From the NCBI GenBank assembly GCA_964016885.1, contig OZ024745.1:105338001-105402000 (forward strand): a DNA stretch of 64,000 nucleotides, written 5' to 3'. Numbering within the stretch: position 1 is the first letter of the stretch; each line of letters starts with the position of its first letter. A model generated the notes under the pieces. It was given only the letters and a program-made list of their open reading frames with translations. It was not told the DNA's origin and made no database searches. The position numbers and the translations under genes are program-made. Origin of the DNA: Eledone cirrhosa. Lineage: Eukaryota. Shown here one piece after another: positions 3,761-58,669 of this stretch.

Positions 3761-3808
<48 letters not shown>

Positions 3809-4188: not shown

Positions 4189-4849
4189 AGTATGTATGTA
4201 TGCATGTATATGCATATGTATATATATGGTCATGTAACATATATATATATATCTTAGTCTTAGATTCTTCCGCGCCATTCGGCGCATCGAAGATTAAGTA
4301 CTCGCCAACGGTCACGATCAGCGGCAAATATTGATTAATAGTTATATTTACTCTTGAAAGTATTAAAAAAAATAAAAAAAACACTGAATGAGTGAAAGAA
4401 AAAATATTGACTTTTATTAATAATTCTTGAAATGCTACTGCTGTTATTATGTATAATGTTTTACCTTACCTTATAAAATTGCATATTGGTTCTTTTATAT
4501 AGTAAGTTAATCTCACGATTTAGTTCGGTTTTAAAAGGTCTTTGTATAACTTTAATTTTCTAAATTTGCGATTTGAAATGCATCCTGGCTTTCAACGCAT
4601 TTAGCTAATTTAAATGATCAGATATGCTGTACGATGTTTACATTCATCGTATACAATTTTCGTTTTATCCAAATGGATTAATTATGTATATTTAACATAA
4701 TTTATACTGTTGCATATAGTAAGATTTGGTTGAATCGAAATAATAATACTTTCAAGAGTAAATATAACTATTAATTAATCCTATATGTAATTGACAACTA
4801 TTGATTTAAACTGTTTGTAATGTTTATAATGTTAATAATTCTAAACATT

Positions 4850-5030
4850 TGGCAGTATCGGTAGAGGGTCGGACGCCATGCTTTCCAGCATAGTTACGTC
4901 CCTTTACGATCTGAGTTCAAATCCCGCCGAGGTTGACTTTGCCTTTCATCCTTACGGGGTCGATAAAATAAAGTACCAGTAATGAACTGGTTTAATTGCT
5001 GGCCTTGTGCCTAAAGTAGAAACAATTATA
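4850..5030 (+). mobile_element. SINE family A
   Basis: Near-identical to 50-226. Confidence 0.9.
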
Positions 5031-5722
5031 TAAAATGCATATACAGATGGTGATATACGAATAAGTTGTGATAAATATCCTCATACATATTTACTATATT
5101 TGTAAACTTCATTGGTAGGTTAAAATGTCTCTGATTTTTGAAGTTTCTAACAAAATATTGAATATATTTATTAATTTAACTATGCTTCTGATTATCATTG
5201 AAAATATTTTATATTGTTTTATTTTGATTTAATATATTAGTATAATATGCTCAAACATAACCAAATACAATAGATAGTAAAAATGTCACCGTATTTAATT
5301 GGTCGTTTCTACCTGACTTAATATTTTGAAAACAACGGTCACGCATCATGTCCCTTTCTTCTTTCTTTATTTCCTGTTGCAGTTATGTATTACATCCTCT
5401 CTTTTATCTCCCTCTCCCTCCTTCTTTTTATCTTTTTTCCCTCTTCTCTTCTATTTAGCACTCTCTCTTTTCTATTTCTTCTCTAACATGGATATTTACG
5501 CATTTAAATATTTTGTACTTATGTGTTTATTTATTTCTTCTATATTTTCTCATACTCATCCTCGCTTGATACTTATATCTCGCTCCACATCCTTCTCTTC
5601 ATCATATTTAGTTTGTCATGTTATTTTTTGTGGTATATAAATATTGAGTTTTGTTGTAATAAATCACTGCCAAGATTGGAATTGAACCATCAAAACAGTT
5701 GAGGTATGTCATACATCAATTC

Positions 5723-5795
5723 ATATATTTTATCTGATGAGGACGTACTGAAAAAAACACCACAGTACCTCCGAAATATATATAATAAAACATAT
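5723..5795 (+). ncRNA. Type I hammerhead in PLE 3' fragment (about 5300-5836)
   Basis: TTTTAT CTGATGA GGA-C-GTACTG..CAGTAC-C-TCC GAAA TATATA TA ATAAAA; same layout as 27457-27520. Confidence 0.85.

Positions 5796-15476: not shown

Positions 15477-15479
<3 letters not shown>
15329..15479 (+). mobile_element. Fold-back element with probable HHR 3' half
   Basis: About 53-bp inverted arms; GAAA TGCTC..GAGC TTA; related to 36825-36955 and 14887-14975. Confidence 0.65.
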
Positions 15480-16073
<594 letters not shown>

Positions 16074-21000: not shown

Positions 21001-21877
21001 TTAAGTTGGGGTTATTAAGTAAACAAAGTTATGTAAAACCTGAATACTTGCGTTGGAAGTGGGTTTTTGAATAAAGTTTTGGGTTTTGAATTGTTGGAAT
21101 TAATTTTCTTTTCTTTTTTTTCCGAAATAGAATTTTACATTAATTTAATATTCCATCATTGAAAAACATATAACTCCCCGAAATGTTTGAAATAGAATGA
21201 AGATTGCCGAGAAATATTCAACTAAACTTCAATAGTAATTCTGTTGGGAAAATCTGGAAAAATATAAGGAATATAGCAATATTTATTTCTTAATAATTCT
21301 GATACATATTATGAGAATATTTCAGATATTAAATTTTCGTCTATATATTTTAATTTAAATATTGCTGTTTTGCCTTAACTTTAATTTAAATATTGCTATT
21401 TTGTCTCAATTATATCAGCATTCGTTAATCATTATCGATTTGGATGAGTTACGAATCAATACGAGATGGAAAATAATCAATTAGCAACATTTCAGCGAGG
21501 TTAAGTTAAGTACAAAGTTTAGTTGTTTTAATTGCGCTCAATTTAAAAGAACACTCAATTGAAAACTTCAATATTGATACATTTAATAAGATATTGCGAA
21601 TAAGATATTAAGTGGTAACAACAAAAACAAAACAATGAAAATTCTCTTGATATGAATTTTAACCTTGATACTTAACTCAATATGGATACTATGCTATATA
21701 TTTTTTTTGAAAGGTTTCAGCAGGTGATTCAGCTTTAGGTTAATCATGTAGTTGTCAGTTTTGTCAATGATGTTCGATTTTATAGGTATCAGTAGTCACG
21801 TTTCTAAAGGATTCAATCAATTATGTGGTTAGTAGTGTTAGGAAGGATGCTCACTGCTTCTGTGGGGGAGCATTTTT

Positions 21878-22262
21878 GTTTCTACTTTTGGCACAAGGCC
21901 AGCTATTACCCAGTACATTACTGGTACTTTATTTTATCGACCCCGTAGGGATGAAAGGCAAAGTCAACCTCAGCGGGATTTGAACTCAGACTGTAAAGGG
22001 ACGTAACTATGCTAGAAAGCATGGCGTCCGACCCTCTACTGATACTGCCAATCCACCGCCCTTATAGAGTTATAATTGTTTCTACTTTAGGCACAAGGCC
22101 AGCTATTACCCAGTACATTACTGGTACTTTATTTTATCGACCCCGTAGGGATGAAAGGCAAAGTCAACCTCAGCGGGATTTGAACTCAGACTGTAAAGGG
22201 ACGTAACTATGCTAGAAAACATGGCGTCCGACCCTCTACTGATACTGCCAAACCACCGCCCT
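21878..22262 (-). mobile_element. Tandem dimer of SINE family A
   Basis: Two near-identical 200-bp units including the flank CTTATAGAGTTATAAT. Confidence 0.9.
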
Positions 22263-22327
22263 TATAGAGTTATAATGATGTATGGTAGGTGTGGTGACGT
22301 TTTGCTACATATTAAATTTTCGCGCAA

Positions 22328-23094: not shown

Positions 23095-23150
23095 GTGTAT
23101 ATATATATATATAATATATAAGAACAAAAGATGGTTAAAAGAGTTCCATG

Positions 23151-23221
23151 TATTTTATTATGCGCATTTCAAAAACAAATATCATCATGCAATAATATTT
23201 GTGTTTTCATCAGATAAAACA
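23151..23221 (-). ncRNA. Type I hammerhead in element 23120-23324
   Basis: Minus strand: TGTTTTAT CTGATGA ..ACAAATATT..GATATTTGT.. GAAA TGCGCA TA ATAAAATA. Confidence 0.88.
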
Positions 23222-23323
23222 GGAAGACGTGATATGAAGATTAAAAAACACTTGTGGATAGTGCAGTTTTAAATCAACATATCTGCATTGCTTTATTGTA
23301 CTACAATAAAACTCACCTCCTAC

Positions 23324-23737
<414 letters not shown>

Positions 23738-23940
23738 GTATATATATATATATACGAAATAAATATGGTTTTATAAATATAGTTTCCATTTATTTAATAT
23801 CATAAATATACTCCAAATACTTGTTGAGTGCTTTTATATCAGTTATAAATATTTACTCGTTGTTAACCCAACAATTTAAATATAACTTTCCATGTATCTT
23901 GCTCCAATACTGTTGAGCGCTTTATATTATAACTGAAAAA

Positions 23941-25518
23941 TTGGAATTCTTTAAGATTACTTCCTCTTTAAAAGACATACCTCTACCTAGAAACAAAGAC
24001 TTTATAAAACAATTAATAGATAAATCTGACTCTTTTATAAGGAGAATCAGGTGGCGAGCATTCCACTTTGATAAATCTAATATAAATGAAAATGTCTCGG
24101 ACTTAAACAAAGTTTTCAAATCCAAAAGAAATCCACCCCCCAACAAACTTTTATCTGACTTTGAAAACGATATAATTTCTATCATACAAGGAGTCAAATT
24201 CAAGAGAAACTTCAAAGGCCAGGAATATCTGAAAGGCATTAGGGATAATATTGAGAGCTTAGAGAAAACTGAGAAGATCTTGGTAAAATCTGACAAGACC
24301 AACAACCTCTATGGAGTGCAGAAAGACATGTATAATGGCCTCATACTAAAAGAACTGAGGAAAAAGTACAAGGTAGCAGATAAGGCCGAGCTAGAGAAAA
24401 TGAATGTTGAGGCATCTTGTATAATGCACGAGTTGGAAATTGAGAACAGAACACAACCTTTCGTGCCCAGGAAACCGAAGATCAATATGAAAGATCATAA
24501 GAGAAATTTTGAGAATGACTTGCCAGTCAGATTGATTGCACCATCAAAATCGGACCTGGGTAAACTAAGCAAAAACATTCTTGACAGGGTGATACAGCAA
24601 ATTAAAAACTTGAGTTGTTTACCTAACCTGAGCTTGTGGAAGGGAACTGGTGAGGTTGTTGAGTGGTTTAAGCAAATTAAATATAACAATAATAATAAGT
24701 TTATTCAACTTGATATTGCTAACTATTATTCTTCCATTACCCCTAATCTACTAAATAAGGCACTAAATTACGCATTCAAACATACAGACCTAACTAGCAA
24801 TGAAATGCACATTATATTATCGGCTAGGAAAACATTGATAGAATTTAATGACCAACTATGGACCCGAGCAGATAGAGATAACAATTTTGACATTACTATG
24901 GGATCATCCGACTCAGCTCAGGTAACTGACCTTGTGGGCTTATTTTTAATCAATTCGCTGCATAGGAAAATACCTGGTACTACCGGAGGTTTATATAGAG
25001 ATGACATGCTTTTACTTATTGATAATAATAACTCTGAACTAAATAGAAAAAGAAAACAAATTACACAATTTTTTAATCACTTTAATCTAAAAATAGAAAT
25101 CGAGAATAACCATAGAATAGTCAACTTCCTAGATATAACATTAAATCTCAACACATGTCTTCACTATCCATTTCACAAGTTGAATGAAAACTTAAACTAT
25201 GTCAGCTTTAACTCTAACCACCCCAGATCTGTTAAAAAGACTATAGTAAACTCTGTTCAATCACGTATCTCTAGAATCTCATCTAATAAAAAGATTTTCG
25301 ACGAAAAAGCCCATTATTACAATGAAGCGTTAGCTAGAGCAGGATATAGTGATAAAATTATGTACATAGATAAGGATAAACAAATTAAACAAAATAACAA
25401 CTATTTTAATTACGGCCACAACCTTAACAACTATAATAGAAAGCATTACAATAATTCCAAAAGCCATAAAAGAAATAGAACTAGGAATATAATATGGTTC
25501 CCCCCCCTTTCTCACTAA
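23941..25518 (+). CDS. PLE reverse transcriptase (5' part of frameshifted ORF)
   Basis: KSDKT, VRLIAP, QLDIANYYSSI, ITMGSSDSAQVTDL, LYRDD, NFLDITL, SNHP; no ATG at the 5' end of the frame (TTG). Confidence 0.92.
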   Translation: MEFFKITSSLKDIPLPRNKDFIKQLIDKSDSFIRRIRWRAFHFDKSNINENVSDLNKVFKSKRNPPPNKLLSDFENDIISIIQGVKFKRNFKGQEYLKGIRDNIESLEKTEKILVKSDKTNNLYGVQKDMYNGLILKELRKKYKVADKAELEKMNVEASCIMHELEIENRTQPFVPRKPKINMKDHKRNFENDLPVRLIAPSKSDLGKLSKNILDRVIQQIKNLSCLPNLSLWKGTGEVVEWFKQIKYNNNNKFIQLDIANYYSSITPNLLNKALNYAFKHTDLTSNEMHIILSARKTLIEFNDQLWTRADRDNNFDITMGSSDSAQVTDLVGLFLINSLHRKIPGTTGGLYRDDMLLLIDNNNSELNRKRKQITQFFNHFNLKIEIENNHRIVNFLDITLNLNTCLHYPFHKLNENLNYVSFNSNHPRSVKKTIVNSVQSRISRISSNKKIFDEKAHYYNEALARAGYSDKIMYIDKDKQIKQNNNYFNYGHNLNNYNRKHYNNSKSHKRNRTRNIIWFPPLSH

Positions 25519-26153
25519 ACATTAAAACCCACATTGCTAAACTATTTTTTAAAGCTCTTGATAATCGCTTCCCTAGAACACATAGGTATCACTCAATTTT
25601 CAATAGACATACTATAAAACTAACCTACTCATCCACCAAAAATTTAGCGCAAAATATTAATAGAATAAATAACAGGAACTTAAAACCTAGCGATAATAGC
25701 ATAAATAATATCCAAGTTAACAAATGTAACTGTAGAGATAGATCTAAATGTCCGTTAAATAACAACTGCTTAGTTAAAAATATAATATACAACTGTAATG
25801 TTAAAACGGACGTTAATTCTTTTAACTACGTTGGTTCTACATCGACGGAATTTAAACTTCGCTATAACAACCACAATAATTCTTTCACAGATCCATCCAA
25901 AAGATCTTCAACAGCACTATCAGGCGTACTCTGGCAACTTAGGCATGATAACGTTAGATATTCGACGACTTGGAATATAGTTTCAAGGGGGATTCCTTTT
26001 AATTCATCCTCTGAGACATGTAACCTCTGTGCGGAGGAGATATTCTTTATACTAAAATCTAAAAATTCCCTTAATCTACGGACAAATTTATTCAGTTGCT
26101 GCAGACATAGATTGAACTCAACGTTTAAATATAAATTTAAATTTAAAATGTAG
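25494..26153 (+). CDS. PLE linker + GIY-YIG endonuclease (3' part of same ORF)
   Basis: CNCRDRSKCPLNNNCL, IIY..NYVGST..FKLRYNNH, CNLC..E, CRH; joined by 1-nt indel in C8 run 25500-25507. Confidence 0.9.
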   Translation: MVPPPFSLNIKTHIAKLFFKALDNRFPRTHRYHSIFNRHTIKLTYSSTKNLAQNINRINNRNLKPSDNSINNIQVNKCNCRDRSKCPLNNNCLVKNIIYNCNVKTDVNSFNYVGSTSTEFKLRYNNHNNSFTDPSKRSSTALSGVLWQLRHDNVRYSTTWNIVSRGIPFNSSSETCNLCAEEIFFILKSKNSLNLRTNLFSCCRHRLNSTFKYKFKFKM

Positions 26154-27456
26154 TTATGTTTGATTTGATTTGTAATTATTTATGAAAATAGCCGATAAAT
26201 CTTTCGATTTCTTCTTTTTATTAAAACATTCTCTTTATTAAAACATTCTTCATGAATAATTAAACTACCCTAAAAGCTGATGCTCCAAATATATCAAATT
26301 AAATTTTACACTAGATAAACTTCTATATTAAATATAAGAACATATGTAGACCAAATGGGTATCCTAAACTTTTGGAATGATTTCTGCTAGACAGGATTTG
26401 GTAAACAATTTTTGTTTTATCTGTTTCGACTCTGATGCTTATGATGAACTTGGCAATATATTGTCAATTAACTTTGAAAGGCTGATCTCTGTGGCCGATT
26501 TGCGTGGCATACTATGTTTAATTTTTATTATTTTTTAATATTTTGTAATATTTTTATTTTTAATATTAAATGTTTTAGTTTTCTGTTTATTTATTTATTT
26601 ATTTTCTTGTCTCTGATATTTTTATTTTTATTTTTATTTTTATTTTTATTTTTATTTTTATTTTTATTAATATATTGAAATCTGTTCTATATTTCTGCTT
26701 GATCGACAATCATGTAGAGTAAAGAAAAGTATAGTATTGTTAAAATTAATATAGACTCTATATATATGTGTATATATACACACATATATGTATACTTGAA
26801 TTTTTATAGCACAATGAGAATGTTTTCGTGTGAATTGGGAGTTTGTTTATAATTATGATATAAATATATGAATTTTTAAAAACTAGACATAAGATCATTA
26901 CTTTTCACACATTATAGATACATGTCTCATTCCTGAATACTGATATTTACATTATAATGCCTGTTTTATACGAACTAATATTTTCTACAGGATGAAGCAT
27001 AGCGTTTTTAAATTCTACCTCGTTTATGTCTGGTTATTTTTCATTTTCTCTTTTTTCTCTCTATATAACGGCTATTTTCTCTCTTAACTACATACATCTC
27101 TCTTTACATTAATACTAGAGCTAAATAAATAAATAAATAAATAAATAAATGTATCAACCGATACTCAACTTCCTAGTTTCTCTATCTATCTCTATCTATC
27201 TCTTTCTTTTTTTTCCTCTCTCTATATATATTTCTCTCTGTTTCTTTACATGAAGTTCTTCTCTTTATCTATCTTTCTATATCTCTCTATTTAGTCACAT
27301 GCATTTCTTCTTTTTCTTCGTTTCTCTTTCTTTCTTTCTTTTTCTCTTTCTTTTTACAACTGTCCACAATATTTTTTACTGCCAAATCAACCTCCCAAAT
27401 GCAAGGTGATTGAAAGGTATGTCGTATCTATTTATTTATAAGACTGTTTATATTGT

Positions 27457-27520
27457 ATTTTGTCTGAAGAAGGCATAACATATTGTTAATATGATATCCT
27501 TGAAATATATATAACGAAAT
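27457..27520 (+). ncRNA. Type I hammerhead of the 3' pLTR
   Basis: ATTTTGT CTGAAGA AGG..CATATT-GTT-AATATG..CCT-T GAAA TATATA TA|ACGAAAT; cut after 27513. Confidence 0.88.
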
Positions 27521-27732
27521 AAATATGGTTTTATAAATATAGTTTCCATTTATTTAATATCATAAATATACTCCAAATACTTGTTGAGTGCTTTTATATC
27601 AGTTATAAATATTTACTCGTTGTTAACCCAACAATTTAAATATAACTTTCCATGTATATATGTATATATATATGTATATATATATATATGTATATTCATA
27701 TATATGTATATATATATGTATATACATATATA

Positions 27733-27877: not shown

Positions 27878-27928
27878 GTAGGAGGTGAGTTTTATTGTAG
27901 TACAATAAACAATGCAGATATATATACA

Positions 27929-32454: not shown

Positions 32455-32645
32455 GGGAGGTGAACTGGCAGTATCGGTAGAGCGTCGGACGCCATGCTTT
32501 CCAGCATAGTTACGTCCCTTTACGGTCTGAGTTCAAATCCCGTCGAGGTTGACTTTGCCTTTCATCCTTACGGGGGTCGATAAAATAAAGCACCAGTAAT
32601 GCACTGGGTAATTGCTGGCCTTGTGCCTAAAGTAGAAACAATTAT
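32455..32645 (+). mobile_element. SINE family A
   Basis: Family match; TSD TATTGGGA. Confidence 0.9.
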
Positions 32646-33147
32646 TGGGATTTAACGATGTTATCTACCTTCTGTGACCGGATACAAACTTGGTACAAAA
32701 CATTCCTCTTACCTGCATTGCTAGCAAACGAGGTGGTGTTAGCACAAGTCTGCGTTGTTGTTGTTGTTGTTGTTGTTCGAAGTCTTGTTTATGTTGTCAG
32801 TGATATTTACGTTTTCTGGTGCCAATATTCAAAAGCTGCAAACACAAAAAGATACTTTTCAGAAAAATAAAATAATGTCTAAATGAGATACAATATATTT
32901 TTCCCAATCCCCGGACGAAAAAAAAAAAAAAATTCATCCAGAAAATCTTGGTAAAAATCCAATTTTCTTGGAGACGTTTCGCAACCTTATAATAATTATA
33001 ATATTAACAAGAAGAAGAAGAAGAAGAAGAAGAAGAAGAAGAAGAAGAAACAACAACAACAACAACAACGGCAACAACTTTAACAAATACAATAAATATA
33101 GATACACATAAGTATGTGAATACGTATGTATATATATATATGACTGG

Positions 33148-33349: not shown

Positions 33350-34512
33350 AGCGTATGCCAAAGGTGCTCGATACTAGTGCCGGCAGTATTAAATATTCGA
33401 AGTGTTAATATTTAGTGGGCTAGAGAGTTAGCAGAGCGTAAGCCCGTGGAAAAGTAAGAAATCGGAGAATAGATCGTTAAAACATGTTTATTTAAAACAG
33501 CACCTACGTATGTTTTGCCCAGTTGGGCTTCTCAAGGGCATAAATAACCAAAACTGTTCCTTACATTGCTCGGAAAGAGTTTTTGGAGTTAGGTTCACGT
33601 CAAGATTCATTGCTCGCAAAAATAGCGTGTTTTGATTTTGCAGCAGGTCAAGGGAGGTAACTCTGGTCGGTGTTAGGGCAGTCTTTTCCGGACAAATTTT
33701 TATCCGTTATAACATGTGGTTACAACCTTACCTTTGTCGATACGCACAGGCTCATGTAATCAACGGTTATTTTGAGAGGTTTGTTTGTCCGCACCTGTTT
33801 GCCTGGGTCGTTTGAGGCTGGGTCTGGTATGCATGGTTAGTTTCCTGGGTGTTATTTTGCAGCGCCTGCCCGCCGGGATGTTAAAACTTGTTGCAGGGAG
33901 ATCGGGTACACGGTTTCAGTCGTCATCCTTAACCCATCTGAAGAAGGATATTTTTAAGCGATGTGTACAACTTATCGCTGTTTCAGCTCTGCTGTTGATG
34001 AGCTCGTGGGGTGCAGTTATGATGCGGTAGAGCTCCATGAGGCAAAGATCGCACTTCCTCTTGAAATTGTACGGTGCAGCCCTGCCGACAATATCCCAGT
34101 GCGTGGAGAAGCTGATGTTTAAGTCCTTTAATGACGTGATGTAGTCCGCGAGCGAAGTGGAGTGTCTTAATTTCTTATTTGTGATAGAGTGGAGATGTGT
34201 TCGAAACCTAATTTTGAACGGGCCGGAGGTAGCCCCTATATAATGTTTGACGCTATTGTGGCTAGTTACAATGCATCTATATATAACCCTTTCAGTAAAG
34301 CTATAAGGGGGCAGCGTCCCCTGTCGCGGCAGTTGCAATTTCTGTCGCGGTTCCATTCATTTCCCACGGTAAGGCTATCATTGTTGCTGCCTACGTTGTT
34401 ATCTACGCTCCCGCAGCTGTCGTTAGCACCATTACAACCCACAGCGCGCGGGGTGGTACGATTATTATTCCGCACGTCATGTCCTGCATGTTCCCCAGTC
34501 ATTTCGCGGTTA
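33350..34512 (-). mobile_element. 5'-truncated PLE (GIY-YIG ORF 33916-34510) with degenerate U3-A8 HHR at 33500-33540
   Basis: CNCRDRGRCPL, VIYRC..HYIGATSGPFKIRFRTH, CDLC..E, CTH; GCCC TTGAGAA GCCC-AACT-GGGC AAAA CATACG TA. Confidence 0.85.
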
Positions 34513-35996: not shown

Positions 35997-36470
35997 GGAC
36001 AAAATGAAATTTCTCACTCTTAGTACGATGGTTGCTAGATACTGTACGGCTTAATTTGGGATGTTTGTTTACAAACAAACCGAGTATTATAATAAATTCT
36101 CGGTAAATCCATAGGTACATATATATATACATGTGTGCATGTATGTATATATATACATACTACTGTACGTCTGTATACATATATGTATGTACGTATACAT
36201 ACTTATATTTAAGTAACAGCCGTACTAAGAGTGAGAAATGAAATTTCGTTCCAAATTTTCCATTTATCTTTTTCGGTGCGCCTGGCCGATTAACTCACTC
36301 GATATGCAAATTAGGCTGCTCAGCCGTTAATTTGCAACAAACCGAGCATTATAATAAATGCTCGGTAAATCCATACGTACATATATATATATATGTGTGC
36401 ATGTATGTATATATATACATACTACTATACGTCTGTATACTTATATGTATGTACGTCTACATACTTATTT
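35997..36470. mobile_element. Rearranged copy of the 58034-58669 family (HHR lost)
   Basis: Shared GATGGTTGCTAGA..CCGAGCATTATAATAAAT and GTACTAAGAGTGAGAAAT; partial tandem plus short inversions. Confidence 0.8.
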
Positions 36471-40429: not shown

Positions 40430-41340
40430 TAAAATATCAACTAAAACAGGACAAATCCATTGGGGGTGATCAAAACTACATTCAAAATCTACAAGGAATG
40501 TAATAAGTTGACAGCAACCATGTTGCCTATTTCACACAGTTTATTTTCGCACTTGCTTCAGTTTTACCTATACACAAGCAAAACTCCATAGTTGATCCAT
40601 TATAATATCAATCTATATTATTACCGAACGCCATAAGAAAATGGTATCAACAATCATTAAAAAATATCATACCATGGCTACATGCCAAATGATCAGTTCA
40701 ATCTGGAAAGGCAATTTGGGTTTAGAAGATTTTCTTATTATCTTACCCCAGAATATGGAATAATTACTTGGACATAATTCAAGAAATAACTATCATAGCC
40801 CTCGACATTGAAGGAAGCTTTGACAGAACATTTCACAACATACTTCACGTCTAGGTGAAATGACTTAGTGGGAACCGTTCAGGTATCTGCAAATGTAACT
40901 CAATAGCAGCCGATTAAATTAATTCTTCTATGCTAATCTTCTACTTCGCCAATCATTATTTATTGGCAGTATCGGTAGAGAGTCAGACGTCATGCTTTCC
41001 AGCATAGTTACGTCCCTTTACGATCTGAGTTCAAATCCCGCCGAGGTTGACTTTGCCTTTTATCCTTACGGGGTCGATAAAATAAAGTACCAGTAATGTA
41101 CTGGTTAATTGCTGGCCTTGTGCCAAAAGTAGAAACAATTATTTATCTGAGACAGAAAGGTCAACACTTGGTCCACCCTTGTTTCCGTTTTCATAAGCGT
41201 TGTTTACAATCCCTGCGAAAGTAAGTTGCACATATACGCCAGTGACTTCATGGTATTTACATTTGTAATATCTACAGGTGAAAGGGACCTAAACAGCAGT
41301 CATTCTAAAATTGTAAAATTTAAATCCTAGAGAAAGCTGG
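40430..41340 (+). pseudogene. Decayed LINE reverse transcriptase
   Basis: QFGFR-like, ALDIEGSFDR, GSTLGPPLF, YASD in RT order. Confidence 0.6.
40963..41140 (+). mobile_element. SINE family A inserted in LINE remnant
   Basis: Family match; TSD ATTATTTAT. Confidence 0.9.
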
Positions 41341-43682: not shown

Positions 43683-44149
43683 TAATGTTCCTTGAACTGA
43701 CATATCAAAGGAAATGTTATAGTAAGCGTTACTACGTGAAGTGGCATCTAGATCTGCATATTTCCCCTTTCATTCTGGTATAGATCTAATCTCTTTGATC
43801 ATCAACATCGTCATTGTGGTGTGGTCATCTCTCTCATCCTCATCACACCATTACCAGCCCCAACATCATCACCGCCATCTATGTGTTTACTATAGCTACA
43901 AGAAATAGTAAACACATATTTTTCAAATCACACCCTACAGCCTTAACTGCGTTGAAGAAGGTAGTGCCTTATATAGGAAAGGATGGGCTGGTCATGGATG
44001 GAAGGCCTTTGATCATAGGTCCGCTATATCAGGACCAACTTGGGTTAAAGATAAACAATCACCAACATGATTTTAACCACCGCCCCACCGCCGCCACTAC
44101 CACTGCCGCTCTGACTATGACGATAAAGATAACCAAGAGAAGTATCATC

Positions 44150-46110
44150 AGCAGCAGCTTCCCCCACCACAACCACAAGACCTCCAGCAGCAGTAGCAGT
44201 AGCAGCACCCCACCAGAACCATCCCACCTCCAGTAGCAGTAGCAACACCCCACCGCAACCACACCATCTCCAGCAGCAGTAACAGTAGCAGCTCCCACAC
44301 CACAACCACCCCCACCTCTAGCAGCAGTAGCATCACCCCCACCACAACCACCCCACCCCCAGCAGCAGTAGCAGTAGCATCACCCCCACCACAACCACCC
44401 CACCCCCAGCAGCAGTAGTAGTAGCAGCACCCCCACCACAACCAGCCCCACCTCTAGCAGCAGTAGCAGTAGCAGCACCCCCACCACAACCACCCCACCT
44501 CCAGCAGCAGTAGCATCACCCCCACCACAACCACACCACCCCCAGCAGCAGTAGCAGTAGCATCACCCCCACCACAACCACACCACCCCCAGCAGCAGTA
44601 GTAGTAGCAGCACCCCCACCACAACCACCCCACCTCCAGCAGCAGTAGTAGTAGCAGCACCCCCACCACAACCACCCCACCTCCAGCAGCAGTAGCAGTA
44701 GCATCACCCCCACCACAACCACCCCACCCCCAGCAGCAGTAGCAGTAGCATCACCCCCACCACAACCACCCCACCCCCAGCAGCAGTAGCAGTAGCATCA
44801 CCCCCACCACAACCACCCCACCCCAGCAGCAGTAGCAGTAGCATCACCCCCACCACAACCACCCCACCTCCAGCAGCAGTAGTAGTAGCAGCACCCCCAA
44901 CTCAACCACCCCCACCTCTAGCAGCAGTAGCAGTAGCAGCACTCCCACCACAACCACCCCACCTCCAGCAGCAGTAGCAGTAGCAGCACCCCCACCACAA
45001 CCACCCCACCTCCAGCAGTAGCAGCAGTAGCAGCACCCCCACCACAACCACCCCACCTCCAGCAGCAGTAGCAGTAGCAGCACCCCCACCTCAACCACCA
45101 CCACCTCCAGCAGCAGTAGCAGCACCCCCACCACAACCACCCCACCTCCAGCAGCAGTAGCAGTAGCAGCACCCCCACCTCAACCACCCCCACCTCCAGC
45201 AGCAGTAGCAGTAGCAGCACCCCCACCTCAACCACACCACCTCCAGCAGCAGTAGCAGTAGCAGCACCCCCACCTCAACCACCCCCACCTCCAGCAGCAG
45301 TAGCAGTAGCAGCACCCCCACCTCAACCACACCACCTCCAGCAGCAGTAGCAGTAGCAGCACCCCCACCTCAACCACACCACCTCCAGCAGTAGTAGCAG
45401 TAGCAGCACCCCCACCACAACCACACCACCTCCAGCAGCAGTAGCAGTAGCAGCACCCCCACCACAACCACCCCACCTCCAGCAGCAGTAGCAGTAGCAG
45501 CTCCCACACAACAACCACACCACCACCAGCAGCAGTAGCAGTAGCAGCACCCCCACCTCAACCACCACCAGCTCCAGCAGCAGTAGCAGCACCCCCACCT
45601 CATCCACACCACCTCCAGCAGCAGTAGCAGTAGCAGCACCCCCACCACAACCACACCACCTCCAGCAGCAGTAGCAGTAGCAGCACCCCCACCACAACCA
45701 CACCACCTCCAGCAGCAGTAGCAGTAGCAGCACCCCCACCACAACCACACCACCACCTCCAGCAGCTGTAGCAATAGCAGCAGCCCCACCACAACAACCC
45801 CACCTCCAACAGCAGTAGCAGTAGCAGCACCCCCACCACAACCACCCCACCTCCAGCAGCAGTAGCAGTACCAGCACCCCACCACAACCACCCCACCTCC
45901 AGCAGCAGTAGCAGTAGCAGCACCCCCACCACAACCACCGCATCTCCAGCAGCTGTAGCATCACCCCCACCTCAACCAACCCCACCTCCAGCAACAACAG
46001 CAGCAGTAGCAACAACCCACCACAACCACCCCACCACCAGCAGCAGTAGCAGTAGCAGCACCCCACCACAACCACCCCCACCTCCAGCAGCAGTAGCAGC
46101 AGTAGCAGCA
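44150..46110. repeat. About 45-bp minisatellite (CAGCAGCAGTAGCAGTAGCAGCACCCCCACCACAACCACCCCACCTC)
   Basis: Direct. Confidence 0.95.
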
Positions 46111-46259
46111 GTAAGGATCCACTCCATTAGAATCACTACAAACACCATTCAAACGCTACAAGCAATAATACTACAACGACGGCCCAACAGTTATTCTCCG
46201 CTTCCAGCAGAATCCAATAATATAACTACTAAGCAATACAATAACATCCAGCAGTAACA

Positions 46260-46443
46260 TAAATGACACCAGCACTACCACCATCACCACCATCACCACC
46301 AGCACTACCACCGCCTCTACCACCGCCTCTACCACCACCACTACCACCACCATCACCACTATCACCATCGTCACCATCGTCATCATCATCATCACCACCA
46401 CAACCAACACCACAACCAACACCACCACCGCCACCATCATCAT

Positions 46444-46475
<32 letters not shown>

Positions 46476-48060
46476 CTATCATCACTATCATCACCACCAC
46501 AACCAACACCACCACCGACACCGCCACCACCATCATCATTATCATCACCACCACCGTCTCTCCACCACCGTCATCATCATCGTCATCATCCTCACAACCA
46601 ACACGACCGCCTCCACCACCGCCAACACCACCACCGCCACCACCACCGCTGCCACCAGAGCCACCACTGCCACCTCAGCCGGCAGCAGCAGCAGCACCAC
46701 CACCATCATCATCATCAAAAGCACTACAGCCACCACTGCCACCACCATCACAACCACCATCACCACCACCACCACCACCACCACCATCATCATCATCACA
46801 AGCACTACAGCCACCACTGCCACCACCATCACAACCACCATCACCACCACCACCACCACCACCACCATCATCATCATCACAAGCACTACAGCCACCACTG
46901 CCACCACCATCACAACCACCATCACCACCAAAACCATCACCACCACCACCATCACCACCACCACCATCATCATCATCACAAGCACTACAGCCACCACTGC
47001 CACCACCATCACAACCACCATCACCACCAAAACCATCACCACCACCACCATCACCACCACCACCACCATGGGCTACAATTAAAGGCGGGAAGGAAGAATA
47101 GTGGAAAAAATATAACTAAACAGTAACAAATATTTCAACAGCAAAAAACATCATAAGAATGTACAACAACAACAGTAGCAATGACAACAACAACAACAGC
47201 AGCAACAACGACAACAACAACAGCAGCAATGACAACAACAACAACAACAATAACAGCAACAACAGTGATAACAACAACAACAGCAGCAACAGCGACAACA
47301 ACAACAACAACAGTAGCAATAATGACAACAACAACAATAATAGCAACAACAGTGATAACAACAACAACAACAACAGCAACAACGACGACAACAACAACAA
47401 CAACAGCAGCAACGACGATAACAACAACAACAACAGCAACAACGACAACACCACCAACAACAGCAGCAACAACGACAACAACAACAACAGCAATGACAAC
47501 AACAACAATACTAGCAACAACAGTGATAACAACAACAACAACAACAACAACAGCAACAGCGACAACAACAACAGCAGCAACAACGACAACAACAACAGCA
47601 ACAACAACAACAGCAGCAACAACGACAACAACAACAGCAACAACAACAACAACAGCAACAACGACAACAAGGACAGGAACAACAACAACAACAATAGCAG
47701 CAACAGCAACAATGACAACAACAAGAGCAACACCAGTAACGATGATAACCACCACCACAACCACCACCACCACAACAACAACAACAACAACAACAACAAC
47801 AGCAGCAGCAATGACAAAAAACAATAACAACAACAGCAAAAACAACAACAATGTCAACAACAACAGCAACAATGACAACAACAGTAACAACAACAGCAAC
47901 AACAGAAGTAATGACAACAACAATAACAACAGCAGCAGTAATGACAACTACGGCAACAATGACAACAACAGCAATGACAACCACAACAACAACAACAACA
48001 AAATCAACTACAATCAGCAGCCATGACACCAACGAAGACGTTAACAACAACGAGAGCAAT
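46260..48060. repeat. CAC/CAT then AAC/AGC trinucleotide arrays with higher-order units
   Basis: Direct. Confidence 0.95.
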
Positions 48061-48499
48061 AATAACGTGAAGAGTTAGCAACAGTTACAATAAATGTAAA
48101 AAAAAAAAAAAATGGCCTTGATGAATTCAACGAAACAGCAGGAGTAATTGACCTGATAAAAGCTTCGTTAATTCTGCACTGCTTTCTAAGATCAATGAAA
48201 GTAGCTGTTTTAATTTGGCTTCTCCAAGATTTTTCAGTTTCTGATTGTGATGCTGGTGATGGTTGTGAGAATGGCTGTGATAGTTGTGATGATTATGATG
48301 GTGTGGCAGCATATAATTGTGGATAATTGTATTGGTATTGGTTATGATGCTGAAAATGTCAACCAAAATGTTTATGTGAAACATGCATGAACGCATAAAG
48401 AAAAAAAAAAAATGAATGAATAATTGAATAAATAAACAAATAAGTAAATATAGTTAATGGTAATTTTTCTGTTATATATCGTTTGTTTAAAAAACGTGC

Positions 48500-49960: not shown

Positions 49961-50015
<55 letters not shown>

Positions 50016-50107
50016 TACACGTGTTTCGTGTATAACCCAACATAAAGGAATACATTCAAACATTAACTGAAAAAGCACTCAACATATTTAGGCAGAGTAT
50101 AACATTT

Positions 50108-50210
<103 letters not shown>

Positions 50211-55795: not shown

Positions 55796-56434
55796 ATGTA
55801 ATCTGAGTTTTTCGAATATTAATAATAATATTCGATTCGTTTGTAATTATGCAAACAAGTCTCACTTTTAAAGCCATGTCACTAGAATGAGCCCCTCATT
55901 CTTGCTCTTGTGTTGGCATGTAAACAGAACTGCAGACACTAATGTTTCTGAGTATTACCCTTCATCAGTACAGTTCACTGTTTACTTGCCAACTGTCAGA
56001 GCTAGTGAAAATATATTATATTTTCTAAAACATACAGTGACTGATCGGCCTGATTTGCATATTAGCAGACTGATTGATCAGTCAGATCTGCATATTAGCA
56101 GATCCAATGATCAGCCAGATTTGCATATCAGCAGGCAAGCCAGTCAGTTTCCTGTATATGAGCGATCAATGGCCGGCTTTGCCATATTCAAATTTAAAAA
56201 AAATCTTCGCTCTACATGACTGAATATAATCTGAGTTTTTCGAATATTAATAATAATATTCGATTCGTTTGCAATTATGCAAACACGCCTCATTTTTAAA
56301 GCCATGTCAGTAGAATGAGCTCATCGTTCTTGCTCTTGAGTTGGCATGTAAACAGAACTGCAGACACTAATGTTTCTGGGTACTACCCTTGATCAGTACA
56401 GTTCACTGTTCACCGGCCAACTGTCACCCTTCTG

Positions 56435-58003: not shown

Positions 58004-58033
<30 letters not shown>

Positions 58034-58038
<5 letters not shown>

Positions 58039-58669
58039 TATGTATACGTACATACATATATGTATACAGACGTACAGTAGTATGTATATATATATACATA
58101 CATGCACACATATGTATATGTACGTATGGATTCACCGAACATTTATTATAATGCTCGGTGTGTTTGTAAACAAACATCCCGAATTAAGCCGTACAGTGTC
58201 TAGCAACCTTCGTTGCTCATTTGTTCAACACCGACAGAGGAACGCTGTACTAGTTTCAAGCTTATTAGCTATCGTCAGCAACGTATACCTTCCTGCCAGA
58301 TGATTGAACGTCTGAAAGTATATACTTTCCTTATGCATATTAACAGCTGAGCAGGTATACGTTGCTGACGATAGCTAATAAGCTTGAAACTAGTACAGCG
58401 TTCCTTTGTCAGTGTTGAACAAATGAGCAACGATGGTTGCTAGACACTATACGGCTTAATTCGGGATGTTTGTTTACAAACACACCGAGCATTATAATAA
58501 ATGTTCGGTGAATCCATACGTACATATATATATATGTGTGCATGTATGTATATATATATACACATACTGCTGTACGTCTGTATACATATATGTATGTACG
58601 TATACATACTTATATTTAAGTAACAGCCGTACTAAGAGTGAGAAATGAAATTTCGTTTCATTTTTTCCG
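58034..58669. mobile_element. Fold-back element with intact HHR in both arms (58242-58284 minus, 58359-58401 plus)
   Basis: About 255-bp arms; ACGTTG CTGACGA T-AGCT-AATA-AGCT-T GAAA CTAG TA CAGCGT. Confidence 0.9.

Follow-up and report, generated by a model that had tools for sequence, protein, structure and literature searches.

A splice-donor-like motif upstream of hammerhead ribozymes in Hydra-clade Penelope-like elements is likely one arm of a long-range helix with the start of the reading frame

Results

Penelope-like elements and hammerheads in the window

The window, i.e. the whole stretch of 64,000 nt of Eledone cirrhosa DNA that was analysed, contains a Penelope-like element (PLE, family C) and hammerheads (HHRs) of several families (Table 1). 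The reverse transcriptase frame of element C breaks near 25500. Its RW motif, RRIRWRAF, aligns with RMRWKAFF with Arg in place of Lys as in several relatives, and the change from DKG to DKT is present (KSDKTNN). The endonuclease part shows CNCRDRSKC, IIY...YVG, CNLC and CRH and no CCHH when read against the description of the Hydra clade, which lists a C-terminal endonuclease, RW and DKT, CxCX5C, no CCHH, an HHR in the pLTR and (TA)n targets (Craig et al. 2021, PMC8557442). Element C has all of these features, including a canonical HHR in the pLTR and insertion into (TA)n, and the HHR of a related locus, L017, matches the HHR listed there for Penelope-1_NV. A Pfam search gave no match. Two named protein matches, Argonauta and Octopus, make a cephalopod host likely. 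Thus element C is assigned to the Hydra clade of Penelope-like elements by the motifs described in that paper. It differs from the clade, whose members are usually shorter than 3 kb, in being 3.9 kb long and broken, and it has a long helix II and a TA-palindromic helix III. A single intact ORF is lacking, as the frame breaks near 25500 and TTG occupies the place of the start codon; also in view of its length we take the copy at 23754 to be decayed. A remnant of another Hydra-like endonuclease domain lies at 33943-34337 (-) with 35% identity to 25485-26153.

The pLTR repeat of family C comprises 23754-23897 and the corresponding 27514-27657. The element begins with the base that directly follows the predicted HHR cut, and its 3' end lies 144 nt beyond the cut, within the second pLTR. 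At the 5' junction, (TA)n-T-ACGAAAT, there is one A where the intact HHR has two, which places the end within one base of the cut site rather than inside the TA stretch of helix III. The preliminary description had proposed Penelope-like pLTR ends with HHRs and self-cleaved RNA as the template; the Hydra-clade motifs and the HHRs are indeed there, and the start of the 23754 copy is the one expected for cleaved RNA.

The HHRs at 5734, 15823 and 23213 mark pLTR ends of other families, the ORFs of which are absent from the window. All HHR calls rest on our own descriptor; an Rfam search had no hammerhead among the best 150 of 260 matches, nearly all of which were microRNA models on microsatellites. 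Region 15479-15968 is an inverted-repeat derivative of family B that ends before hairpin 1 and before the place of hairpin 2 (see below). Family D is represented by two head-to-head pieces with the same 5' boundary, 23120-23322 (-) and 27878-27918 (+), and element C sits in (TA)n between them.

Table 1. Coordinates of the features in the window. The caret marks the splice-like boundary.
Feature	Position	Strand	Remarks
Shared 8-mer, copies A and C	5666..5673 and 27378-27385	+	ACTGCCAA, common to both copies
Donor-like motif and predicted helix arm, family A	5702..5710	+	AGGTATGTC; 9/9 identical to arm at 27415
Type I hammerhead, family A	5728..5790	+	core at 5734, with a cut predicted after 5784; helix III weak and TA-palindromic
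Inverted pLTR piece, family B	15534..15704	-	hairpin 1 and following CAG; ends just short of hairpin 2's place
Donor-like motif and predicted arm, family B	15767..15775	+	GGGTATGTC; 8/9 match to window arm
Hammerhead, family B	15816..15879	+	core 15823; homologous to 27464
Hammerhead, family D	23151..23221	-	core 23213
Top-scoring donor-like site, family D	23311..23319	-	GAG^GTGAGT; 6 nt from (TA)n junction
Hydra-clade Penelope-like element, family C	23754..27657	+	in (TA)n
Hairpin 1	23810..23830	+	ACTC...GAGT; most relatives have GCTC...GAGC
5' arm of helix P2	23839..23847	+	includes best acceptor-like CAG (23840-23842)
Hairpin 2	23901..23918	+	GCTC...GAGC
3' arm of helix P2	23928..23936	+	
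TTG where relatives have start ATG	23941..23943	+	
Reverse transcriptase part of ORF	23941..25518	+	RW, DKT, YRDD motifs
Predicted partner of donor-like arm (helix P0)	23974..23982	+	GACATACCT; Asp-Ile-Pro codons
Linker and GIY-YIG-type endonuclease part	25485..26153	+	CxCX5C; other frame
Donor-like motif and 5' arm of helix P0, family C	27415..27423	+	AGGTATGTC; GT at 27417
Hammerhead, family C	27433..27539	+	core 27464; extended helix I; predicted cut after 27513
pLTR fragment of a further family	50012..50112	-	hairpin 1, then TTTTTCAG^TTA
Weak AG^GTATAC abutting helix I of minimal HHR	58352..58401	+	in palindromic element 58029-58618

Donor-like motifs upstream of the hammerheads

Donors were scored in bits with an approximate matrix, and distances were taken from the GT motif to the HHR core. 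All five GT motifs named in the preliminary description were located where it had put them. On the plus strand GT 5704 (GAG^GTATGT) scored 5.2 bits at 30 nt from the core, GT 15769 (AGG^GTATGT) 3.6 bits at 54 nt, and GT 27417 (AAG^GTATGT) 6.0 bits at 47 nt; an acceptor-like T9-CAG run precedes the motif of family B. On the minus strand GT 23316 scored 7.2 bits at 103 nt, and a second copy of this GAG^GTGAGT of family D is found at 27882-27890 (+). Hence all four Hydra-type HHRs of the window have a donor-like GT 30-103 nt upstream. Among 12,778 positions sampled across the window, 990 (7.7%) had a site of at least 3.5 bits within 110 nt upstream. These four motifs thus exceed chance even if the homologous HHRs at 15823 and 27464 are counted once. 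The motif GGTRWGT was not enriched across the window as a whole (30 found vs 34.8 expected).

The proposed tie between GT motifs and HHRs did not extend to the fifth site, GT 58355 (+; CAG^GTATAC), which scored 1.1 bits at 10 nt from the core. Sites of at least 1.1 bits have a background of 27.7% of window positions, and the HHR is of a different, minimal type; we therefore rejected 58355 as part of the pattern. The palindromic, MITE-like element in which it lies has no ORF, carries two minimal HHRs facing outward, 58365 (+) and 58278 (-), and has a partial copy at 36025-36267. The best donors of the remaining five of ten HHR-like sites scored in the window had 0.4-2.2 bits. Further HHR-like cores of other types are at 55968 (-), 36540 (+), 850 (+) and 1283 (-).

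The 8-mer ACTGCCAA, said to lie about 38 nt before the donor in copies A and C, was confirmed in both at 38 and 39 nt ahead of the GT, with the first start corrected from 5665 to 5666. An 8-mer shared at that offset occurred in about 1.3% of shuffles. A TATA-like box at 5634-5641, 30 nt upstream of 5666, is restricted to copy A.

Donors and acceptors in related elements

Loci with related ORFs numbered 92 (77 from metagenomes, 15 from genome bins), and the HHR descriptor, applied to both strands, made 83 calls in 36 families; a few of these calls may stem from other PLEs that flank the loci. The loci L078-L092 are Hydra-clade PLEs in bacterial genome bins and likely represent animal host DNA. 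Two families with too short upstream sequence were dropped. A donor of at least 3.5 bits within 110 nt upstream of the HHR was present in 1 of the remaining 34 families, with 2.4 expected from shuffles; control windows downstream gave 0/32, 1/31 and 1/30, and the other strand gave 3/34. Among eight further HHRs one had a donor. Thus a donor before the HHR is not a feature of the clade, and the conservation across families outside this genome that the intron proposal had anticipated did not materialize. Searching viral contigs by protein revealed no relative, and of 31 pattern matches in them none had a reverse transcriptase match or a passing HHR near the motif; a search with the N-terminal protein gave no match.

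Nor was a good acceptor for the proposed intron found: four AGs lie from the cut site up to the start position, and in a simple acceptor model they scored -7.0, -6.5, -1.5 and -4.2, all below 0. Between GT and HHR core there is no AG at 5704 and 15769, and at 27417 there is one, 26 nt after the GT. The CAG after hairpin 1 is kept in 3/3 families of the window and in 5/20 others. Donor and acceptor are each kept in three window families, and the donor is absent in 33 of the 34 other families. Close to the ORF start, the acceptor-like AG with the highest score is at 23973-23975, at the end of the P0 partner (see below); P0 would lay the donor against it, and a splice there would break the ORF.

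In Penelope of D. virilis a 75-nt pLTR intron begins 46 nt downstream of the start site, and RT-PCR has demonstrated its splicing (PMC2377424); its 3' end is at the 5' edge of helix I, which leaves the HHR exonic (PMC4209133). The window resembles this arrangement in having a donor-like site in the pLTR, soon after a possible start site and upstream of the HHR. It differs by the lack of a usable AG between donor and HHR core, so that an intron in the window would have to contain the HHR. A clade-wide acceptor of the D. virilis kind at the edge of helix I is not claimed, as the tests were mixed and most families have no nearby donor: a pyrimidine-rich YAG ending within 7 nt of the core occurred in 7/36 families against a background of 5% (p 0.002, chosen after seeing the data), and the scored acceptor test at the helix I edge gave 3/36 families vs 2.3 expected. 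Locus L049 has a donor at -110 and an acceptor at -9 before its HHR at 3793, which may be a 101-nt intron with the D. virilis geometry. Among the direct repeats listed for contigs with both pLTRs there was no intron-sized gap that would betray a spliced form.

Predicted pairing of the donor-like arm with the start of the ORF

The arm 27415-27423 of element C is the exact complement (9/9) of 23974-23982 at the start of the ORF, and AGGTATGT recurs on the minus strand at 23982. With the two element ends co-folded, the nine pairs of this helix, P0, had probabilities of 0.87-1.0. Since ATA-CCN codons read as GGTAT on the opposite strand, the GGTATGTC motif has the look of a splice donor.

In 18 families, the window excluded, the 110 nt preceding the HHR were compared with the ORF start zone for the longest perfect helix. 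Its mean length was 8.67 bp for cognate vs 6.84 bp for non-cognate combinations, and 0 of 20,000 permutations reached the total; helices of at least 9 bp were present in 9/18 cognate vs 26/306 non-cognate combinations. Four other ORF windows, with our window included, gave no pairing signal (p 0.09-0.77). At contiguous natural tandem junctions 19/21 loci were above the shuffle mean and 13/21 above all 10 shuffles.

The published octopus element Hydra-1_Obim, looked up after the pairing had been predicted and read by eye in the supplement of PMC8557442, has an arm AGGAATATTT 81 nt before its HHR that forms ten pairs with AAATATTCCT at the codons AAA AAT ATT CCT. Compared with the window the arm has three double, compensatory changes and no GT, and by eye no strong donor was seen near it in that source. 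In the family of L001 and L002 the helix is AGGAATATTCTT with 12 bp, in L026 it is GAATGTCT with 8 bp; both have the ATT codon and no donor GT in place. The C at +7 is not needed for pairing with U1. It is kept in 3/3 arms of the window.

On the other hand, several results speak against this reading, among them the low conservation of the CAG after hairpin 1 outside the window (5/20 families, see above). The total duplex energy of the window ranked 15 of 19 against non-cognate ORFs, and window pieces folded alone were no more stable than shuffles (z -0.8 and -0.9). A helix of at least 7 bp on the K[ND]IP codons themselves was present in only 4/18 families, the register being shifted elsewhere. 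Covariation in a fixed register was weak within families, with 15/38 double changes keeping the pair and 142/550 cells broken. Sense and antisense paired about equally (p 0.29), which gives no sign of selection at the RNA level. Families A and B have no ORFs in the window and their pairing is assumed. The best match of family D to the arm is AGATATGTT (7/9, no GT); its donor at 23316 has a different sequence (GTGAGT) that pairing does not explain, with no known partner, and its ORF lies outside the window. Taken together we infer that the helices form in RNA, and consider the GGTATGTC motif, the reverse complement of the Asp-Ile-Pro codons, likely to be a long-range P0 arm that closes an RNA domain.

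The missing start codon

Splicing had also been invoked to account for the absence of a 5' ATG at 23941. Joining 27417 to any AG upstream of the Ser-Leu-Lys-Asp-Ile-Pro motif yielded no in-frame Met. Two of 12 donor-acceptor joins tested for an in-frame Met were flagged. The join of 27417 to 23975 is an artefact with a TGA 10 nt before the junction in that frame, and the join of 27406 to 23918 is in frame, but was judged unlikely because its donor is not conserved and the GAG it would use lies in hairpin 2. In related loci an ATG stood exactly eight codons before the conserved Ser in 39/46 matches; among homologous proteins the column of TTG 23941 held Met in 11 of the 12 with a residue there, and 10 more were gapped. 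Because 39/46 relatives have ATG at this place, the TTG is most simply explained by a point change in a dead copy, and the explanation by splicing was dropped.

Twin hairpins, the predicted helix P2 and element ends

Between HHR and ATG two hairpins of the type GCTC-N8-19-GAGCACT were present in 26 of 41 full 5' UTRs (loci L001-L088), about 105 and 42 nt before the ATG. They occurred in 13/8,200 shuffles and 0/41 ORF windows. The sequences that follow hairpins 1 and 2 pair with each other as helix P2 at -11.2 vs -6.1 kcal/mol (0 of 20,000; 21 loci kept of 27 after dereplication), and the window ranked first.

The 3' end of element C maps 4-10 nt before hairpin 2. Among flanked pLTR ends 10/11 fell between 9 nt before and 3 nt inside the start of a hairpin, an interval that was chosen after seeing the data and in ends that assembly can bias; contig-end rows, one tandem row and the mis-matched row of the window were excluded from this count. 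The window's own element ends agree with the hairpin-adjacent pattern.

Discussion

We regard the pairing pattern and the hairpin pair as a well-supported and apparently undescribed feature of a known element clade. The parts of PMC8557442 and its supplement consulted here describe neither P0, twin hairpins and P2 nor an intron for the Hydra clade, and the literature searched, which left most subscription papers and Repbase notes outside, held no report of P0, of the twin hairpins or of an HHR-containing PLE intron. It is probable, and here our confidence is good, that P0, the hammerhead, the twin GCTC...GAGCACT hairpins and P2 form an undescribed cassette of Hydra-clade PLEs that sets two starts of reverse transcription and clamps the ends of the RNA. 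The domain would begin with the arm and the HHR with its long helix I, continue through hairpin 1, P2 and hairpin 2, and finish with the start codon and the first approximately 25 codons. In an RNA transcribed through the pLTR into the ORF, the ribozyme, the hairpins and the start codon would lie enclosed by P0 and helix I. With the protein bound to the hairpins, cDNA would start just 5' of either one. On unspliced RNA reverse transcription would then copy back through the uncut downstream HHR; copies extend 45-145 nt past the HHR cut site. Since the cDNA would run through an uncut downstream HHR, the template would have to be unspliced and no more than partly cut. The 5' end would be set by cutting at the upstream HHR, as in the 23754 copy. 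P0 and helix I may keep both ends of a cut monomer in contact and, in template RNA, the start region closed. As helix III is a weak TA helix, cutting may be slow or may depend on dimers, by analogy with PMC4209133.

Two internal stem-loop sites at which reverse transcription starts, giving a 'tail', have been described for the Poseidon element PAc of Anolis, where unprocessed RNA is the template and HHR cutting is dispensable in vitro (Frangieh et al. 2024, PMC11167929). Two start sites would fit the clustering of element ends before two hairpins. Yet PAc starts 111-118 nt inside the ORF and its HHR overlaps the start codon (PMC11167929), whereas hairpins of the window type precede the ATG by about 105 and 42 nt and share the conserved GCTC...GAGCACT.

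A spliceosomal intron confined to this host lineage, from GT 27417 to CAG 27602 (equivalent to 23842), would span 186 nt across the HHR and hairpin 1. Splicing would yield a capped, ribozyme-free mRNA, and unspliced RNA, its sites perhaps masked by P0 and P2, would be the template; the helices could coexist with such an intron. The donors at 4/4 HHRs of the window against the 7.7% background speak for it, as does the comparison with 1/34 families elsewhere (Fisher p 0.0005, three families counted), the strong donor of family D (23316) with its different sequence, and GCTTT(T/ATAT)CAG^TTA being kept in three families. In copy A the TATA-like box 30 nt before a possible start, which in turn is 38 nt ahead of the GT, gives a layout like that of D. 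virilis Penelope (PMC2377424). Furthermore, Chlamys-3_cRei has a 5' UTR intron across the boundary of pLTR and body, shown by Iso-Seq, albeit in another clade generally without a canonical HHR (PMC8557442). Against it stand the 34 other families, in which donors are not enriched, the octopus element Hydra-1_Obim, donor-less by eye, the weak acceptors with -1.5 bits at best, and the failure of donor 27417 to gain an in-frame ATG. Copy C has no TATA-like box at the offset of copy A, and in D. virilis the HHR is exonic, the intron ending at the 5' edge of helix I (PMC4209133). Pairing offers an explanation for both splice-like sites, as donor and best acceptor are predicted arms of P0 and P2 with counterparts in other families. 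We thus consider the intron possible but doubtful. The combination of the cassette with a splicing switch of this lineage, in which P0 hides the 5' and P2 the 3' splice site, appears unlikely. In that case folded RNA would stay unspliced as template, while capture by U1 before the ORF is transcribed would lead to removal of the ribozyme and the first hairpin for reverse transcription start, giving mRNA.

The GT motifs might also bind U1 snRNP without being spliced and suppress an AATAAA at or after the HHR cut, which would allow read-through of the upstream pLTR. The donor of retroviral 5' LTRs suppresses a polyadenylation signal in such a way. This would account for a strong donor without a good acceptor, and in each of the four copies an AATAAA follows the motif at a distance of 80-160 nt. 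Yet the TTTT(A/G)T strand of helix I has AATAAA as its complement, so that the hexamer needs no other cause, the same layout at the 3' pLTR would suppress termination too, and other families have no donors; we hold this explanation to be very improbable. Finally, the segment before the HHR could be a scar at the DNA level, left when the inverted or foldback insertions that are typical of PLEs copied the ORF start in reverse orientation, without RNA function and with a donor look that is an accident shared by descent. The equal pairing of sense and antisense, the register shifts between families, the weak covariation within them and the frequency of inverted pLTR pieces in the window (15479-15968; 23120-23322 vs 27878-27918) would be in line with this. 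However, the complement is kept at about 35% protein identity and follows each family's own synonymous codons, and its position beside the HHR is constant and accompanied by conserved hairpins and P2. Such a scar therefore seems very improbable to us.

The preferred reading, a folded cassette closed by P0, touches on the choice of template RNA by PLEs, the placement of reverse transcription starts and the role of the hammerhead. A fold common to the clade would join HHR, start codon and reverse transcription starts in a defined cis element for in vitro tests. It also calls for caution, as a donor-like motif in a pLTR can mirror Ile-Pro codons. If the splicing switch were true, it would represent a ribozyme-containing intron in a PLE pLTR, which we did not find in print.

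Other repeats in the window

An abundant dispersed repeat of about 190 nt, which we take to be SINE-like, is found at 39-230, 4849-5032, 21876-22276, 32455-32646 and 40962-41145. A long C/A-rich tandem repeat with several open frames occupies 44130-48070.
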